Numbered from the stretch's first letter, positions 10,904-16,178 are shown. The stretch: 63,607 nucleotides of DNA from Candidatus Bathyarchaeia archaeon (GCA_049969855.1 JBMFOB010000006.1:1-63607), one strand, 5' to 3'. Notes: generated by a model from the letters alone, not told the origin. Translations and numbers: made by a program.

Positions 10904-11456
10904 AATACCAAAAGAACGAGTAGGCGCCCTAATAGGTCCAGAAGGAAAAACCAAGAAAAGCATAGAAGAGAAGCTTTCAGTTGAACTTCAAATAGAAAGC
11001 GAAACAGGCGCCGTTACAATTATGCTGGCTGAAAACGCCAATGATCCATCCTTGCTCTTTAAGGCTAAGGATGTTGTAACAGCCATTGGAAGGGGTTTCT
11101 CTCCAGAACATGCCTTTCGCTTAATTCGTGATGAAGAAGTCATATTAGATGTTATAGATTTGCGAACAATTTTTGGAAGGTCAGAATCAGACATAAAACG
11201 CATTAAAGGGCGAATAATTGGGATGAATGGAAAAACCCGCAAAATAATAGAAGAGCTAACAGACGCAAACATATGCGTTTACGGACACACAGTAAGCATA
11301 ATTGGAAACATAGACCAAGCCCAAGCAGCAAGAGAAGCCATCCAAATGCTCATAAACGGAAGCCAACACAGCACAGTATACCGTTTCCTCCACAGAAAAC
11401 GCAGAGAACTTAAAAAGAAAATGCTTGAGCTATGGGAAAAATCACCAGATTCTTAG
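10878..11456 (+). CDS. KH-domain rRNA processing protein (Dim2/Pno1 family)
   Basis: IPKERVGALIGPEG, AIGRGFSPE, GRIIGMNGKTR, VYGHTV; follows rio1. Confidence 0.9.
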   Translation: MAKPSTFLKIPKERVGALIGPEGKTKKSIEEKLSVELQIESETGAVTIMLAENANDPSLLFKAKDVVTAIGRGFSPEHAFRLIRDEEVILDVIDLRTIFGRSESDIKRIKGRIIGMNGKTRKIIEELTDANICVYGHTVSIIGNIDQAQAAREAIQMLINGSQHSTVYRFLHRKRRELKKKMLELWEKSPDS

Positions 11457-11566
11457 AGAAAACACTAGTTTCTGAAATAGGCAAAGCCCCATACTTTTTC
11501 TCATTTTTGAGTCAAATTTATATAGAAAATAGTTCTAGAACAAAAGTTCACCCATCTGGGGGGGCG

Positions 11567-11737
11567 ATGGCAACAAGAAACCTTTTCTTGCTGAAAGCGG
11601 TCCTCACCATACAACTTTCAAAACTAGGCTTGGACGTTGCAATCTGCCATAAATGTGGCAAAATATTCATGAAAACTGACGGAACAACAATCTGCAAAGA
11701 ATGTCAACACCAATTACTCTCATCTTTTTCTGCTTGA
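11567..11737 (+). CDS. Small zinc-ribbon protein
   Basis: GGGGGG before ATG at 11567; CHKCG...ICKEC. Confidence 0.5.
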   Translation: MATRNLFLLKAVLTIQLSKLGLDVAICHKCGKIFMKTDGTTICKECQHQLLSSFSA

Positions 11738-11791
11738 AACCTCAATGCACTACAAACAAACGGGCTAGAGGGGAGCTAAAGCTCAACAGTT

Positions 11792-11862
11792 TGGCGAGCT
11801 CTTCGCACTCAAGATCCCAATCATTTTTGTTCAGCGGGGCCAGAGTCGTCATCGCTCTGCCA
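11792..11862 (-). ncRNA. Putative box C/D-like sRNA gene used as the integration target
   Basis: Minus strand reads TGGC(A)GAGC stem, G-ATGACGA (C-like), CTCTGGCCCCG, CTGA (D'), ATGATT (C'), GGGATCTTGAGT guide, ...AAGA, GCTCGCCA stem. The terminal D box is degenerate. Confidence 0.45.
11839..11856 (+). repeat. attL core GCCAGAGTCGTCATCGCT
   Basis: Identical to 15792-15809. Confidence 0.9.
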
Positions 11863-12760
11863 TGGTAATGATGATGATTTGCAATTTATTAATGTTGCGA
11901 CGACTCCGCCCCCGCTGAACCATTCTGTAGATTGGAGTGCGTTTAAGGAATGGTTATGCAAAGATAAGAGTGGAGATTATGCAAGAGATTTATTGAATTA
12001 TGCTAAACGCTTTCACCATTGCCTTTTCAATGGCAACTTAAGTGAAGTTGCATTGTTAAGTGAAGGCAAACGTAGAATGGTTTTAGCGAGTCTTTCAGCT
12101 TTAGCGAAGTTTTTAGGCATTTATGACCAATGGAAAAACTCCATTCAAAGATATGGGATTAAATGGGTTGAAGTTGAAACAAAAGATAAGCGAATCATTC
12201 AAAGACTAACCAAGGCAATAGATGTAAACGATGTTTACCAATGGATTAAAAGCGTTAAAGAAGCAAGACCAGAATTAAGCATCTTCATAGGTTTCATGGC
12301 GATTACGGGTTTGCGTCTTGTGGAAGCTGTCGAATCTTACAACCTCATTATTAAATTGGCAAAGGAAGGAAGGTTAAGCGAGTATTACGATAGCGAAAAA
12401 GAAGTTTTGGAACACTACAAATTTAGAGAAACATTCCTACGGAAAGGAAAGAAAGCGTTAATCAGTTTTGTTCCTAAAAGCATGGTTCAAAGGATAGCTG
12501 AAGACTCTTCGCTTAAGACAGCTTCATACATAGATAAGAGCATGAGGCATTATGGTTTACGTTCACGTTTTAGCGATTTAAGAGAGTTTCATGGAAGCAT
12601 CATGACTAAACACCTTAACCAGAACGAAATAGACTTTCTGCATGGTAGGATTGGAACATCAACTTTCATGGCGAACTATTATAATCCATTGTGGATTGGC
12701 GATTTAAAACAAAGAGTCTGGAAAGGGATAAGTGAAATCCTTGCAGAGATACGATGCTAA
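11840..12760 (+). CDS. Tyrosine recombinase, C-terminal fragment (intC) of an SSV-type integrase
   Basis: TGLRLVEA, SDLREF, FLHGR, NYY catalytic-type motifs. The frame is open upstream of the TTG at 11879 through attL (PESSSLCHGNDDDLQF). Confidence 0.85.
   Translation, partial: PESSSLCHGNDDDLQFINVATTPPPLNHSVDWSAFKEWLCKDKSGDYARDLLNYAKRFHHCLFNGNLSEVALLSEGKRRMVLASLSALAKFLGIYDQWKNSIQRYGIKWVEVETKDKRIIQRLTKAIDVNDVYQWIKSVKEARPELSIFIGFMAITGLRLVEAVESYNLIIKLAKEGRLSEYYDSEKEVLEHYKFRETFLRKGKKALISFVPKSMVQRIAEDSSLKTASYIDKSMRHYGLRSRFSDLREFHGSIMTKHLNQNEIDFLHGRIGTSTFMANYYNPLWIGDLKQRVWKGISEILAEIRC
11862..11923 (+). ncRNA. Putative element-encoded box C/D sRNA or K-turn inside the integrase ORF
   Basis: ATGGT-A-ATGATGA (box C, 11868-11874)...CTGA (box D, 11915-11918)-ACCAT; perfect 5-bp terminal stem with a 3-nt bulge. 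Confidence 0.5.
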
Positions 12761-12980
12761 ACCGTTTAATCTTCTCTCCCTTTTCATAAACAAATCCGTA
12801 ATCATTCAAAATGGCGATATAGAAGTTGCAGGAATCCTTTTAGCGTTTGAGAAAAGCAGCAGGGTCCCATTCCATAAACCTTTCACTTTAGTGCTGTTGA
12901 CGAGAGATGGAAAAGCAATTATGCGAGATTGGGACATAGTCAAATTTAGACCAGTTAAGGTGGTGAGGGGTTATGCGTAA
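12732..12980 (+). CDS. Small element protein, possibly Sm/LSm-like fold
   Basis: LSLFINKSVIIQNGDIEVAGILLAFE resembles the Sm1 motif; overlaps its neighbours. Confidence 0.45.
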   Translation: MKSLQRYDAKPFNLLSLFINKSVIIQNGDIEVAGILLAFEKSSRVPFHKPFTLVLLTRDGKAIMRDWDIVKFRPVKVVRGYA

Positions 12981-13197
12981 ACATGATAATCCAGTTCCCA
13001 AATGGATAACTCTGGTCGCTACGCTGCTTTTAGGTTGCATTCTGGTTCCAATAATTGTTGACCAGGTGCAAAGCGTTAACACGACAAGCTGGAGTTTCAC
13101 GGGTGTAAGTGGAGCAAGAACGCTTTTCGGTCTTATCCCATTCATTTTCATAGTCGGCATAATCATTTACTTTATGGTTGAACTGTTGAGGGTTTAG
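12973..13197 (+). CDS. Spindle-shaped virus major capsid protein (SSV1 VP1/VP3-like)
   Basis: 74 aa; two hydrophobic helices LLLGCILVPIIVDQV and ARTLFGLIPFIFIVGIII separated by a loop with an NTT sequon and TG. Pattern recalls fusellovirus VP1 (IGxxLLPVIVxQV...TG..ATLL.LVPL). Confidence 0.7.
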   Translation: MRKHDNPVPKWITLVATLLLGCILVPIIVDQVQSVNTTSWSFTGVSGARTLFGLIPFIFIVGIIIYFMVELLRV

Positions 13198-13202
13198 ACG
13201 GA

Positions 13203-13601
13203 ATGGCAAATATTAATCAGTTTTTTCTTGACGGTTTTCTAAAACTTTTTCTGGCAATGTTCACGTTTAACCTGGGAATGCTCTTAATGGTATTGGCAAT
13301 TAGTAATTCACTGTTTTATTATGCTTCAGCTTCATTGTGGATAATCAGCATCCTTTTCATTCTGAAACAAGTGCAACATCTACGATGGATAAAAGATAAT
13401 TTGGAATTCAAAGAAGATGATGAACCGCAAATAAGAATAGATGCAAGCGATGAAGATTATGTTAAGGTTCTCAAGTTATATCTTAACGGTTCCTATAAAA
13501 CCATAATGAAAACGTATCAGTTTAAACATCCTGGTCAAGCTCAACGGTTAATAAAGAAAAGCATAAGGCAACTTTTGATAGAAAAGGGTAGGGGTAACTG
13601 A
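13203..13601 (+). CDS. Element membrane protein (2 TM segments plus C-terminal soluble domain)
   Basis: Hydrophobic N-terminal half and charged C-terminal half; starts 5 nt after the capsid gene. Confidence 0.6.
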   Translation: MANINQFFLDGFLKLFLAMFTFNLGMLLMVLAISNSLFYYASASLWIISILFILKQVQHLRWIKDNLEFKEDDEPQIRIDASDEDYVKVLKLYLNGSYKTIMKTYQFKHPGQAQRLIKKSIRQLLIEKGRGN

Positions 13602-13612
13602 TTAAAAAATGC

Positions 13613-13765
13613 TTATTGCTTCTCTTTTTCTCTTTTGCTTAACCATTCTGGAATTATCACAGCTCGAATTAATTCTTGAACGGTTATGCCTCTCTCCTTC
13701 GCTAATTGCTGAAGTTTCTTGTAAACTTCTTCTTCGAGTGTTTGCATGAATTTAGGCATACTCAT
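13613..13765 (-). CDS. Ribbon-helix-helix DNA-binding protein (50 aa, not in the ORF track)
   Basis: MSMPKFMQTLEEEVYKKLQQLAKERGITVQELIRAVIIPEWLSKREKEKQ; GGTGA-like RBS upstream. Confidence 0.75.
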   Translation of the reverse strand: MSMPKFMQTLEEEVYKKLQQLAKERGITVQELIRAVIIPEWLSKREKEKQ

Positions 13766-13844
13766 ATGTTTCTCACCATCCTATATTTATTTCATTCTGT
13801 AGATAGCTATAGAAAGATTTAAAAAGATTTCCATTTATACCTAA

Positions 13845-14273
13845 ATGCTGCACGTATCTTCTACGTGCGAGAGTGAGAAAGTGGAAAGAAAGCTGATTGT
13901 AACTGGTTTGGCGGCACTTTTAGCGCTTGCCCTAATCGTCTATGCCTTTGAACAACAAGCTGTCACTGTTTATCGCCCCACGGTTGTAGCGGTGAACTTT
14001 CAAAACTTGCCAGTGTCACTTTACGCTGTTAATTTCAATTACAGCGATGCGCAAATGCGTTACACGACCGTAACTTTAACGTTGAACAACACTGCAGCGC
14101 CGATGAACGCTTCAATAAGTGTAATGCTTTACGCTAATGAAAGTGAAGCGTGTAGTGGATTTTGGAGTGGCGTTTTAAACGGTTTCCAGCAGCTGCAGGT
14201 AACGCTAAACTGGATTGGCAATTACACGGTGAACGACATAACCAGCGGATACGTAACATTGAAGCAACCTTAA
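13845..14273 (+). CDS. Secreted or membrane-anchored beta-rich glycoprotein, putative virion or adsorption protein
   Basis: N-terminal hydrophobic helix; many NxS/T sequons (NYS, NNT, NAS, NES, NYT). The true start may be GTG 13881. Confidence 0.6.
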   Translation: MLHVSSTCESEKVERKLIVTGLAALLALALIVYAFEQQAVTVYRPTVVAVNFQNLPVSLYAVNFNYSDAQMRYTTVTLTLNNTAAPMNASISVMLYANESEACSGFWSGVLNGFQQLQVTLNWIGNYTVNDITSGYVTLKQP

Positions 14274-14296
14274 ATTTGAAGAACTAAGCTTTCAAC

Positions 14297-14313
14297 CTTC
14301 CCCCCTTTTTTCT
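14297..14313 (+). terminator. Pyrimidine/oligo-T archaeal terminator
   Basis: CTTCCCCCCTTTTTTCT just after the stop at 14273. Confidence 0.4.
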
Positions 14314-14543
14314 GAAAAGGCAATCTATGGGAAGTTAGACGCTCCAGATTTTTTATCTGGCACTTTTTCCATGCTTTTCAGTTGAAGCGTAACATCTTTA
14401 TGGAAAATGTAATCCTCACTCTATTCGTGTGATAAGTGATATGTTGTGTTGACACGCACAAGCGTCAACCTAAACGGATGATGTCCTTTCCAATAATTTT
14501 TAGTTGATAGCGGCAAAATCAAAGCGGAAGCAATACCCACGCG

Positions 14544-14957
14544 CTAATCATGCCACTTGCCACATGGATAAAACATGAACAGATAATCCAATAAACTGTA
14601 TTTGATAACTTGATGGTTTTCCACGTCAATTATCTCGATTGCCTCTTTAACCCTCGGATTATTAAGAAGTTTAAACCATCCAGCTTTAACAATGAAATCC
14701 AATTCCCAAACATATTTTGGATGGCAATAAAATGGACGTAAAGGATGTTTAAAGACTCGAATACGCTTCAGACTTTTATACATTAACCTGCGAAACGTAT
14801 CTTTAGCATAAATATGTTTAAAAATTGGATAAAGGGCATCCATAATTTGTTTTGGAGTTGCATAATGAAAAGCTTCAAAGAACAATCTTAAATAATCTTC
14901 AAGGCGTAGGCGAGTAGTAGCATCCTCATTTTTGGTTTCATGGAAATTCATGGTCAC
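14544..14957 (-). CDS. Hypothetical element protein (possible wHTH or replication-related)
   Basis: 137-aa ORF inside the element; no recognisable catalytic motif. Confidence 0.5.
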   Translation of the reverse strand: MTMNFHETKNEDATTRLRLEDYLRLFFEAFHYATPKQIMDALYPIFKHIYAKDTFRRLMYKSLKRIRVFKHPLRPFYCHPKYVWELDFIVKAGWFKLLNNPRVKEAIEIIDVENHQVIKYSLLDYLFMFYPCGKWHD

Positions 14958-15015
14958 ATCTATGACTTTTAAAACTGAATGACAATTTAAGACTTGTTGA
15001 CAAAGGTGTGTTAAA

Positions 15016-15177
15016 ATGCAAAAAGTAAGAATAAGCGTAAGAATTGATGGAGAAGATTTCGAGAAGATTCAAGCTGCAATAAAGAAGGCATATCCAACTT
15101 TAAGAAGCGTTTCTGATGTTGTCCGTGCAGCTTTGAAGGAATTTCTTTCTAAACATGAAGGGGTGTGTGTGTATTAA
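15016..15177 (+). CDS. CopG/RHH DNA-binding protein (53 aa, not in the ORF track)
   Basis: MQKVRISVRIDGEDFEKIQAAIKKAYPTLRSVSDVVRAALKEFL; GGTG RBS. Confidence 0.75.
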   Translation: MQKVRISVRIDGEDFEKIQAAIKKAYPTLRSVSDVVRAALKEFLSKHEGVCVY

Positions 15178-15352
15178 AATGAGTGTGTCTGTCTTGTCTT
15201 CCTTCTTCTCTTCTCTCTTCTCTACTCATAATACTCATATACTCATACATACACACATACACACTCACACCTTTTCATTAAAGGAAAATGGGGTAAGCAG
15301 CGGCGGCGAAAACTCTGCAGCTTCTCCGATAATACACACACATACACACACC
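15164..15352. repeat. CA/TG-rich repeat region, candidate replication origin
   Basis: 13-bp inverted repeat (15164-15176 and 15330-15342), TACTCATA x3 (15223, 15232, 15240), ATACACAC repeats. Confidence 0.55.
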
Positions 15353-15359
15353 TTTTTAG

Positions 15360-15608
15360 GTGATGTTCATGGTTAAACGTGACGGAGCAGAAATAAGAAA
15401 AGAAAGAATCCAAGAAATTGTTAGAAAAGTTGTTAGTTTGCTGCATAACGAAGAGGAAATACTGGTAGATTCCACCGTTGCCATTCTTCAATACGAAACA
15501 GGATTAAGACCAGACAAAATAATGGAATACCTCGAAATTGGAGACCAACTTAAACGGTTTGAACTTGACAAAGATAAAAACAAAATTAAGAAAATCAAAG
15601 AGGCATAA
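15360..15608 (+). CDS. Small winged-helix-like element protein
   Basis: RKERIQEI...YETGLRPDKIMEYLE helical pattern. Confidence 0.6.
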   Translation: MMFMVKRDGAEIRKERIQEIVRKVVSLLHNEEEILVDSTVAILQYETGLRPDKIMEYLEIGDQLKRFELDKDKNKIKKIKEA

Positions 15609-15626
15609 ACGTTAAATAGCTATTTA

Positions 15627-15642
15627 TATGCATATATGCATA
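15627..15642. promoter_or_regulatory. Perfect 16-bp palindrome TATGCATATATGCATA upstream of intN; candidate operator
   Basis: Lies between AT-rich TATA-like sequence and the GGTGA RBS of intN. Confidence 0.5.
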
Positions 15643-15651
15643 GGTGAAAAC

Positions 15652-15819
15652 GTGAAAGCGAGAACAACACTCCTAATAGATGCCGACGTTTTGAAAACCG
15701 CCAAAGAATTAGGTTTCAACATTTCAATGGTTTGTGAAAACTGCTTAAAAATCTATATAGAGGCAATAAAAAACGCTAATAAGAAAATAGTGCCAGAGTC
15801 GTCATCGCTTCGCCGTTAA
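15652..15819 (+). CDS. Integrase N-terminal fragment (intN) with CcdA/VapB-like RHH domain
   Basis: RTTLLIDADVLKTAKELGFNISMVCENCL; ends ...VPESSSLRR across attR, in the same att reading frame as intC. Confidence 0.75.
   Translation: MKARTTLLIDADVLKTAKELGFNISMVCENCLKIYIEAIKNANKKIVPESSSLRR
15792..15809 (+). repeat. attR core GCCAGAGTCGTCATCGCT
   Basis: Identical to 11839-11856. Confidence 0.9.
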
Positions 15820-15857
15820 ATTTTAGCACCGTCTAAAATAAAAGTTTATAGTTGTTA

Positions 15858-16178
15858 TCACGTATGAGGATTGGCGTGCCTTATCACAGCATCGAATATT
15901 ATTCCTGCACCAAAAACCGCCAGAACAATCCAATCCATTGCTGCCAAAGTGTATAGCAACGCACTATCAACAGCGCTTCCTTCTTGTATGACTGTTAACT
16001 CCCTCAGCAGTGTATACGCTGAGGTGAAAAATGTCATAATCCATGGAAGTGTCCCAAATGTAGATGTATACTTCCAACCTTTTTCAGCTATGGCTAACCT
16101 CAAACGCGATAACCAATAAACTATCATAAGGCTTGACGCTACCAACCCAGCAACTGATCCAGCAAACACCCACCACAT
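15858..16178 (-). CDS. Small membrane protein (3 TM segments)
   Basis: Three hydrophobic segments. Confidence 0.55.
   Translation of the reverse strand: MWWVFAGSVAGLVASSLMIVYWLSRLRLAIAEKGWKYTSTFGTLPWIMTFFTSAYTLLRELTVIQEGSAVDSALLYTLAAMDWIVLAVFGAGIIFDAVIRHANPHT

Follow-up and report, generated by a model that had tools for sequence, protein, structure and literature searches.

An integrated 3953-bp element with a spindle-virus capsid homologue in a Bathyarchaeia genome, a candidate helper-dependent satellite

The element, its boundaries and the empty sites

The window, that is, the whole stretch of 63,607 nucleotides that was analysed (Candidatus Bathyarchaeia archaeon, GCA_049969855.1, JBMFOB010000006.1:1-63607), harbors between two attachment (att) cores a small integrated element that encodes a split integrase and a homologue of the major capsid protein of spindle-shaped viruses. 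The host is a metagenome-assembled genome (MAG; G000) of 1.28 Mb in 49 contigs, 93% complete, which is a member of a Bathyarchaeia family and in which no 16S gene was found. An initial annotation, made from the DNA alone, had suggested a Bathyarchaeia host, and this is supported by a same-family contig (of G391) that is named Candidatus Bathyarchaeota archaeon and by the several integrase homologues that come from Bathyarchaeia. The features that define the element are the following.

11839-11856: attL core, the left copy of an 18-nucleotide (nt) repeat, present as a single copy in the empty sites L037 and L038
15792-15809: attR core, the right copy of the 18-nt repeat
11840-12760, plus strand (open reading frame, ORF, 11879-12760, 293 aa): Int(C), the catalytic part of an SSV-type integrase, whose frame crosses the att core; phrog_5127
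15628-15819, plus strand: Int(N), the CcdA-like N-terminal part of the integrase, 63 aa, PF07362 at 31.3 bits; enters the right core
12973-13197, plus strand: 74-aa homologue of the spindle-virus major capsid protein; PF25665; two-helix hydrophobic hairpin with an N-T-T sequon in the loop

The two copies of the exact 18-nt direct repeat (repeat family D7), 11839-11856 and 15792-15809, are spaced 3953 nt apart; when extended to 11839-11861 and 15792-15814 it is identical at 21 of 23 nt (91%), the first 18 being exact. By our own arithmetic, about 0.0004 exact 18-mer pairs would be expected by chance per 7-kb stretch. The bounded insertion measures 3953 bp, its two att cores agree at 18 of 18 nt and all of its ORFs are open. 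The insertion is real, since the left and right flanks join at one core in two same-genus genomes, where they abut with a single 18-nt copy at 1026-1043 (G456, L037) and at 2946-2963 (G425, L038). With the exact repeat and these two empty sites, the 18-bp repeat around a 3953-bp unit that the initial annotation had described is borne out. No RNA run is listed for the stretch; the one public run that contains it is a hot-spring DNA metagenome kept as contigs. One of these contigs passes 11856 and continues with 12 letters of the right flank, as expected of the empty-site form; the source of this contig could be either excision or a strain that lacks the element.

The split integrase

Int(C) matches the integrase family phrog_5127 of PHROGs (E 9.6e-11). 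The reading frame is continuous across both att cores and, joined by coordinates, the circular form carries a single uninterrupted int frame of 361 aa, which is colinear with the intact integrase gene of the relative L026 and identical to it at 169 positions. Int(C) has 308 homologues, many of which are found on contigs of 3.7-4.4 kb; among the 120 listed, most carry PF16795 (Phage_integr_3, 'Archaeal phage integrase'), and the long ones carry both PF16795 and CcdA. The cut-off of PF16795 is 27 bits; P0009, a homologue with 79% identity, scores 25.3 bits, L026 scores 31.7 and L090 scores 37.1, and the L026 integrase also matches CcdA at 24.1 bits, each of its two matches being above the respective cut-off. 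A phmmer search of Int(C) against PDB gave nothing relevant. Judged by these matches and by the layout of the gene, the integrase is of the SSV type ('suicidal'), with attP inside its own gene, and it is because attP lies within int that the gene is split into Int(N) at the right end of the element and Int(C) at the left. The same splitting of int is seen in the episomal and integrated pair L026 and L017. The RHH and HTH (ribbon-helix-helix and helix-turn-helix) proteins that the initial annotation had noted are found, except that one of them, the supposed 63-aa RHH protein at 15628-15819, is the N-terminal part of the integrase.

In the review PMC8371274, suicidal integrases are described as having the att site in their gene, which is split by integration, and as requiring an intact integrase from outside for excision. 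The integrases of SSV1, pTN3 and pT26-2, as presented there, resemble that of the window by attP lying in the gene, by the Int(N)/Int(C) split and by PF16795, which is found in the homologues; the match of the N-terminal domain to the CcdA profile is a difference from them. The usual target of SSV-type integrases is a tRNA gene, whereas the window copy lies instead in a conserved small-RNA gene that is not a tRNA. Among the relatives, the targets are tRNA-Arg (L017), tRNA-Ala (L088) and tRNA-Thr (L090).

The capsid homologue

On PF25665 (His1_capsid, Pfam; cut-off 27 bits) the 74-aa protein reaches 39.2 bits (E 6.7e-10), and it matches a PHROG of virion structural proteins at 4.3e-5. In an AlphaFold2 (AF2) model built from an 18-row alignment (pLDDT 78.5), helices span residues 8-37 and 44-73, and the protein has the size and shape (about 70-90 aa, two helices) of these capsid proteins. 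In family alignments, the loop between the helices holds a nearly invariant N-T-T sequon followed by W-x-F-T-G. A search of 1.84 billion proteins with the family profile recovered 163 cluster representatives (E <= 0.001); when the window protein and 72 single-stretch proteins picked from 150 listed representatives were scanned, 39 of these 73 matched PF25665 at E <= 0.001. The best PDB match of the family profile is weak (7xdi_A, the capsid protein VP1 of SSV19, E 0.088). A scan of IMG/VR with the capsid alignment gave no match, and tblastn with the capsid protein as query found none in the phage collection.

Another family of the class has, at L004 (G005:C13:3659-6850), a 73-aa two-helix protein that reaches 24.9 bits on His1_capsid and adjoins a 494-aa ORF; this locus is possibly a further provirus of the spindle type.

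Relatives of the same size

When metagenomes were scanned with the capsid alignment, 21 loci were obtained, and more loci came from a scan of the family genomes with the element DNA. Several of them have the size of the window element (L017, L018, L022, L026, L088); the initial annotation had suggested that related MAGs and viromes be searched for the same gene set. L018 has 4076 nt with a terminal overlap of 122 nt, that is, a circle of 3954 nt, and keeps the gene order of the window without the integrase. L022 is a unit of 3941 nt at the same target, whose Int(C) and Int(N) are 85% and 97% identical to those of the window; the Int(N) of L020 is also 97% identical. The DNA likeness between the window and L022 is confined to the int ends (86% and 95%), and therefore the integration module moves between differing cargoes, as expected of compact integration modules in PMC8371274. 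L017 is a unit of 3984 nt bounded by the 3' half of tRNA-Arg, and L025, L026 and L027 are episomal contigs of its kind; of these, L026 shares 90-99% identity with L017 and has an intact int gene that contains a tRNA-like attP. The smallest unit, L088, has 3364 nt between perfect 44-nt repeats at tRNA-Ala, and is found in another genome of the same family (G528). Its gene order, Int(C), 79-aa protein, capsid homologue (PF25665 at 33.7 bits), a protein with two transmembrane segments and an HTH (2-TM HTH), RHH-like ORF, 167-aa ORF and Int(N), matches that of the window, and it has no surface-protein gene.

A unit of 4842 nt, L090 (G489:C1, 3579-8504), is bounded by 84-nt repeats at tRNA-Thr and shares with the window element the backbone proteins (79-80% identity) and a CA-rich tract. 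No capsid homologue was found in L090; it has a 75-aa ORF with two transmembrane segments, which has no Pfam match. The place of the capsid gene and its neighbors is taken in L090 by the genes of two membrane proteins of small size and of a 357-aa protein that matches Glyco_hydro_99 weakly.

In L020, where an element occupies the target of the window element, a protein longer than 197 aa is encoded at 3-596, immediately before the capsid gene and its neighbors. This protein recurs at 47% identity in L088 (6881-7393), outside the 3364-nt unit.

The window element is an intact and complete member of a family of Bathyarchaeia elements of 3.4-4.2 kb that occur in integrative and episomal form. It is not a deletion remnant, because its same-sized relatives include a circular contig, an episomal contig and integrated units, and it is probably still mobile. 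Homologues much larger than the element, with this copy as their remnant, would have spoken against the initial annotation; the relatives measure 3.36-3.98 kb, and some larger relatives exist as well.

The remaining genes and tracts

The element has about ten genes (10 ORFs were scanned). Beside the integrase and the capsid homologue it contains the following features.

12732-12980, plus strand: 82-aa core protein directly upstream of the capsid gene; homologues in L017, L018, L020, L025, L027 and L088
13203-13601, plus strand: 132-aa protein (2-TM HTH) that begins with two hydrophobic helices and ends with an HTH, the HTH resembling an ATPase C-terminus
13613-13765, minus strand: 50-aa RHH protein; PF01402 at 25.5 bits, cut-off 20.5
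13845-14273, plus strand: 142-aa protein with a single hydrophobic segment, the membrane anchor, at its N-terminus and with five N-x-S/T sequons; L026 and L027 encode homologues
14274-14543: non-coding gap in the ORF map
14544-14957, minus strand: 137-aa protein of the backbone module; homologues with 31-33% identity in L089 and L090
15016-15177, plus strand: 53-aa RHH protein of the backbone module (RHH53); PF01402 at 19.1 bits, under the cut-off of 20.5; 79-81% identical in L089 and L090
15178-15359: CT-rich and CA-rich low-complexity tract; a similar tract lies at the same place in L090 and L018
15360-15608, plus strand: 82-aa backbone protein; 70-80% identical in L089 and L090

The integrase, the membrane protein and the 74-aa hydrophobic protein of the initial annotation were all found again (phrog_5127, the 132-aa protein with its two hydrophobic segments, and PF25665). 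Its remark that no polymerase, helicase, primase or ATPase could be recognised also holds: none of these families, nor one of Rep, matched any of the 10 ORFs at E <= 1 in Pfam and PHROGs.

In all the small elements, the 82-aa core protein, the capsid homologue and the 2-TM HTH protein are kept together as a trio. The AF2 model of the 82-aa core protein (12732-12980) is a small beta-barrel with one helix and four strands (pLDDT 66.5); Foldseek gave nothing significant for it, the barrels of Sm, Gemin and Tudor proteins at the top of its list being leads only. The 142-aa protein is a candidate surface or virion protein, as suggested by its anchor and sequons, with structural leads only to membrane-anchored beta-sandwiches. 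The 137-aa protein is probably a winged-helix DNA-binding protein, a suggestion that comes from structural leads only. Together with RHH53, the CT/CA tract and the 82-aa protein at 15360-15608, it forms a block that recurs, with protein identities of 31-81%, in L089 (same genus) and L090, and that would represent a plasmid-like backbone, in which the low-complexity tract is a candidate replication origin. Short matches of 90-100% identity to the element DNA in family genomes were considered as CRISPR spacers and rejected, as they lie mostly in this low-complexity tract. A simple repeat scan found no CRISPR array in G000, and spacers therefore provided no link.

The integration target

The element is inserted at the 5' end of a host gene for a structured small RNA, whose parts are now found at both ends of the insertion.

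11793-11856, minus strand: host structured small-RNA gene, about 70 nt, the integration target, with its 5' end in the att core
15810-15850, minus strand: host DNA with the initial 5 nt of the small RNA and with the conserved AT-rich box upstream of it, severed from the RNA body (from the alignment)
11899-11920, plus strand: inverted near-copy of the 5' region of the target RNA, inside int; repeat I4; identical in L022

Between genera of the family, the small-RNA block shows 89-98% identity, as compared with 72-90% for the flanking genes, and it always lies between a KH-domain gene and a gene of the metallo-beta-lactamase fold. Across 26 sequences, 96% of the cells are paired, against at most 52% when the partners are slid; the 7-bp terminal stem shows A-U, G-C and G-U exchanges, the inner helix is invariant, and the U-G wobbles fit the minus strand only. 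Neither in the window nor in the empty sites does the block match Rfam or a tRNA. An AT-rich box is conserved 20-25 nt upstream of the 5' end of the small RNA. After integration, the body of the RNA is at attL with element DNA upstream of it, and at about 11884-11893 the element provides an AT-rich box of its own at the same distance from the RNA body, identical in L022, which may restore the expression of the small RNA.

Other identities were considered for the block. A small ORF (36 aa, 11742-11852, minus strand) is ruled out because relatives differ by indels of 1-2 nt in the central loop. Box C/D RNAs have the C motif (RUGAUGA) and the D motif (CUGA) near a terminal stem, and guides of about 12 nt. 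The block does contain a CUGA and a near-C box, but its 3' stem has no CUGA beside it and the would-be guides pair with each other, and this identity was rejected as well. The targets of these would-be guides (exact 11-mers, four relatives) are at the locus itself and at three other places without an Rfam family.

Several further observations concern the surroundings of the target. The inverted near-copy inside int (11899-11920) forms with 11829-11850, in the host flank and the att core, an inverted repeat of 22 nt with 91% complementarity (20 of 22 nt). To the right, outside the element, a 106-aa membrane-protein ORF (15858-16178, minus strand) lies between attR and the gene of the metallo-beta-lactamase fold; it is present in same-genus genomes, and in other genera, which do not have it, the small RNA is 35-60 nt from the latter gene. 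To the left of the small RNA there is a Cys-rich ORF of 101 aa (11432-11737), in a stretch of about 308 nt in the window versus about 143 nt in L037.

Larger relatives

Capsid genes 44-61% identical to that of the window are also found on larger contigs (L023 and L024, up to 11.1 kb, L028, and L030 and L033), which reach 11-13 kb and carry a conserved block of larger genes of about 250, 447 and 255 aa, with an extra gene of 455 aa in L023 and L024. These contigs probably represent a group of spindle-type viruses not described before. L024, L030 and L033 also encode a P-loop ATPase that has the Walker A and B motifs and matches a PHROG of unknown function at 6e-17; the sole match of the L024 ATPase in the collection scans, ORF5 of Halorubrum pleomorphic virus 3, is weak (27% identity, E 2e-3). 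Searches of Pfam and PHROGs with the large genes of these contigs and with the extra ORFs of the relatives gave almost nothing. The HTH of the 2-TM protein resembles the C-terminus of the ATPase: hhalign with the single L024 protein gave 85.7% and E 5.5e-6 over 44 columns, and in BLASTP the 2-TM protein of a relative matched the ATPase C-terminus at E 4e-8 over 68 aa. L024 and the small elements L015 and L026 come from one metagenome record series.

A further integrated element, of at least 6.3 kb and with a tRNA-like right end, occupies 1-6600 of L014 (G391:C31, from the named Bathyarchaeota MAG). It encodes an Int(C) with 50% identity, a hydrophobic protein of 87 aa with two helices, a 486-aa protein and a protein with a Prim-Pol domain (20.3 bits, below the cut-off). 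The 197-aa ORF of L020 has no likeness to the 486-aa protein of L014, and neither is called a helicase.

Comparison with known systems

[quoted passage not shown] According to the same preprint, the signature module of spindle viruses consists of the capsid protein and an AAA+ ATPase. The window family resembles the SRCEs, as presented there, in being a small circle (the circle is seen in the relative L018) with a spindle capsid gene, an incomplete morphogenetic module and a plasmid-like remainder. SRCEs carry a rolling-circle Rep or a primase-helicase, often with an AAA+ ATPase, whereas none of these was detected in the window element at E <= 1 in Pfam and PHROGs. The family also differs from what that text reports of SRCEs by integrating through a suicidal integrase, by residing in hot-spring Bathyarchaeia and by its sizes down to 3.36 kb. 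What is new with respect to SRCEs is the host class, the integration, the lack of Rep and ATPase, and the new kind of target. Bona fide spindle viruses (Fuselloviridae, Halspiviridae, Thaspiviridae, Huangdiviridae) combine a capsid gene with that of an AAA+ ATPase; the window element, in whose 10 ORFs no ATPase family was found, does not fit this definition.

pSSVi and pSSVx, satellite plasmids of the fuselloviruses of Sulfolobus/Saccharolobus, are also small circles, which are packed into small spindle particles under co-infection by a fusellovirus, and neither has a capsid gene. An SSV-type integrase is also encoded by pSSVi, which inserts into a tRNA gene. pSSVx has an ATPase and a plasmid replication module and no capsid gene, as stated in the SRCE preprint, and the window element is the reverse of this, with a capsid gene and neither of the other two.

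The capsid proteins of His1 (Halspiviridae) and of SSV1 and SSV19 (Fuselloviridae) are like that of the window by the PF25665 profile and the two-helix hairpin, and the link to the 7xdi structure is weak, at the E value given above. The genomes of His1, SSV1 and SSV19, of about 14-17 kb, are several times larger than the window element. Within the host class, the one spindle-type provirus of Bathyarchaeia described so far, Huangdivirus (Huangdiviridae), has at least 40 numbered genes (Duan et al., PMC10541130). It shares with the window element the host class, two-helix capsid proteins with sequons and a tyrosine integrase, and differs in having VP1-VP3, an AAA+ ATPase, a glycosyltransferase and a lyase, as compared with about ten genes in the window element (PMC10541130). 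The statement of the initial annotation that described spindle viruses are several times larger holds with respect to His1, the SSVs and Huangdivirus, but not to small capsid-bearing circles, and the novelty of the size is reduced because the 2025 preprint had already proposed such circles. No description of Bathyarchaeia elements of this kind was found in a literature search from which the supplements of the SRCE preprint and of Duan et al. were left out.

Proposed lifestyle and alternatives

The initial annotation had proposed either a minimal spindle virus or a helper-dependent satellite, a pair that is supported on sequence evidence; between the two we lean, with modest confidence, towards a helper-dependent, capsid-bearing integrative satellite. 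The element enters the chromosome by means of its SSV-type integrase, with splitting of int, at the 5' end of the small-RNA gene. It combines three modules, one for integration, a putative plasmid-like backbone and a minimal spindle-virus morphogenetic module (beta-barrel, capsid and membrane-anchored HTH proteins), plus the candidate sequon-rich surface protein. Host proteins would replicate the element, which would be packed into spindle-type particles made of its own capsid protein with functions of a co-infecting larger virus of the same capsid family, and the combination of helper functions with an own capsid would define it as a capsid-bearing satellite. For excision, a related incoming element would have to supply an intact integrase. 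Helper dependence is suggested by the ATPase, Rep and primase that are missing in the small elements, in view of the ATPase that is present in the larger capsid-sharing contigs, and by the resemblance of the HTH of the 2-TM protein to the C-terminus of that ATPase. The co-occurrence of L024 with small elements in one metagenome series, the precedent of the SRCEs and the need of suicidal integrases for an outside integrase in excision also speak for it. The backbone, which occurs in L090 without a capsid gene, fits a plasmid that acquired a viral module.

Several results weigh against this reading. No helper was found in the host MAG, 93% complete as it is, where the capsid protein has this element as its sole match, and the capsid profile matched just 4 of 401 sampled genomes of the class. 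The link between HTH and ATPase is modest, as hhalign against a two-sequence ATPase alignment gave a probability of 0.4. The window Int(C) itself has no match to PF16795 in Pfam at E <= 1, its membership being established via PHROGs and the homologues. As for the circular attP junction and the empty attB that the initial annotation had advised to look for, the latter was recovered in two genomes and one run contig, and the former was not seen in the single holding run, kept as contigs. The comparison of the capsid model with spindle-virus capsids, also suggested there, is divided in a similar way: the profile match is above the cut-off of PF25665, whereas Foldseek against PDB and BFVD gave nothing at E <= 0.001 and listed no capsid protein, and VP1 of 7xdi_A was reached just at the E of 0.088. 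Foldseek is a poor test here, because the two-helix hairpin is too simple a fold, and in the absence of a significant fold match the capsid assignment rests on sequence profiles and gene context. Finally, the own capsid gene and the candidate surface protein may leave room for self-sufficiency.

The last point leads to the alternative of an autonomous minimal virus, spindle-shaped or pleomorphic, in which a circle of 3.4-4 kb is replicated by the host and needs no helper, the capsid protein, the sequon-rich surface protein and the small DNA-binding proteins being sufficient to wrap it. Its own capsid gene with the conserved sequon, the candidate surface protein, the several DNA-binding proteins and the missing helper provirus in the host MAG are in keeping with it, and the many integrase homologues on contigs of 3.7-4.4 kb suggest an abundant, self-sustaining population. 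We nevertheless consider it unlikely, since the ATPase of the signature module (as given in the 2025 preprint) is missing, the 3364-nt L088 does without a surface-protein gene, and larger relatives with a full gene set exist. Slightly less probable still is the further claim that these elements are self-sufficient viruses and the smallest archaeal viruses with double-stranded DNA, which would form a spindle or pleomorphic particle from a 74-aa capsid protein, with or without the surface protein, have no ATPase or replication protein of their own, and conceal themselves in the chromosome through the splitting of int within a small-RNA gene. It could also be argued that the element is an integrative cryptic plasmid that forms no virion, and that the hairpin is a membrane protein with a role in vesicle-borne transfer or virus exclusion. 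The backbone shared with L090, which lacks a capsid match, the plasmid-like L018 without integrase and the simple hairpin without a specific structural match can be read in this sense. This is improbable in our judgment, given the score above the PF25665 cut-off and the matches of 39 of the 73 family members, the presence of the same gene (44-61% identity) beside conserved large genes in virus-like contigs of at least 11 kb, and the trio of beta-barrel, capsid and 2-TM HTH proteins, which is kept across elements whose other genes differ. A decaying, immobile remnant of a larger provirus could be invoked on account of the split integrase gene and of the larger relatives L014, with its primase-polymerase domain, and L020, which lies at the same target and has an additional ORF longer than 197 aa. 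The open ORFs, the att cores identical at 18 of 18 nt and the uninterrupted int of the circular form make this very hard to sustain, as do five independent relatives of 3.36-3.98 kb, which include a circular contig and an episomal one whose int is intact; a split int is, moreover, the normal integrated state of this integrase family (PMC8371274).

Implications

The integration target suggests that a small RNA, so far unannotated, is conserved throughout the Bathyarchaeia family. The family of elements is a small, well-bounded system of which the integrated, episomal and empty-site forms are in hand, and it can be used to address the least gene set of a spindle particle, the rescue of suicidal integrases and the switch from a tRNA to another RNA target. 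If the satellite reading is true, the idea of capsid-bearing satellites would be extended from the haloarchaea of salt lakes to a distant, uncultured and globally abundant class, in which the satellite would have a stripped form, with no Rep, no ATPase and integration into the chromosome.

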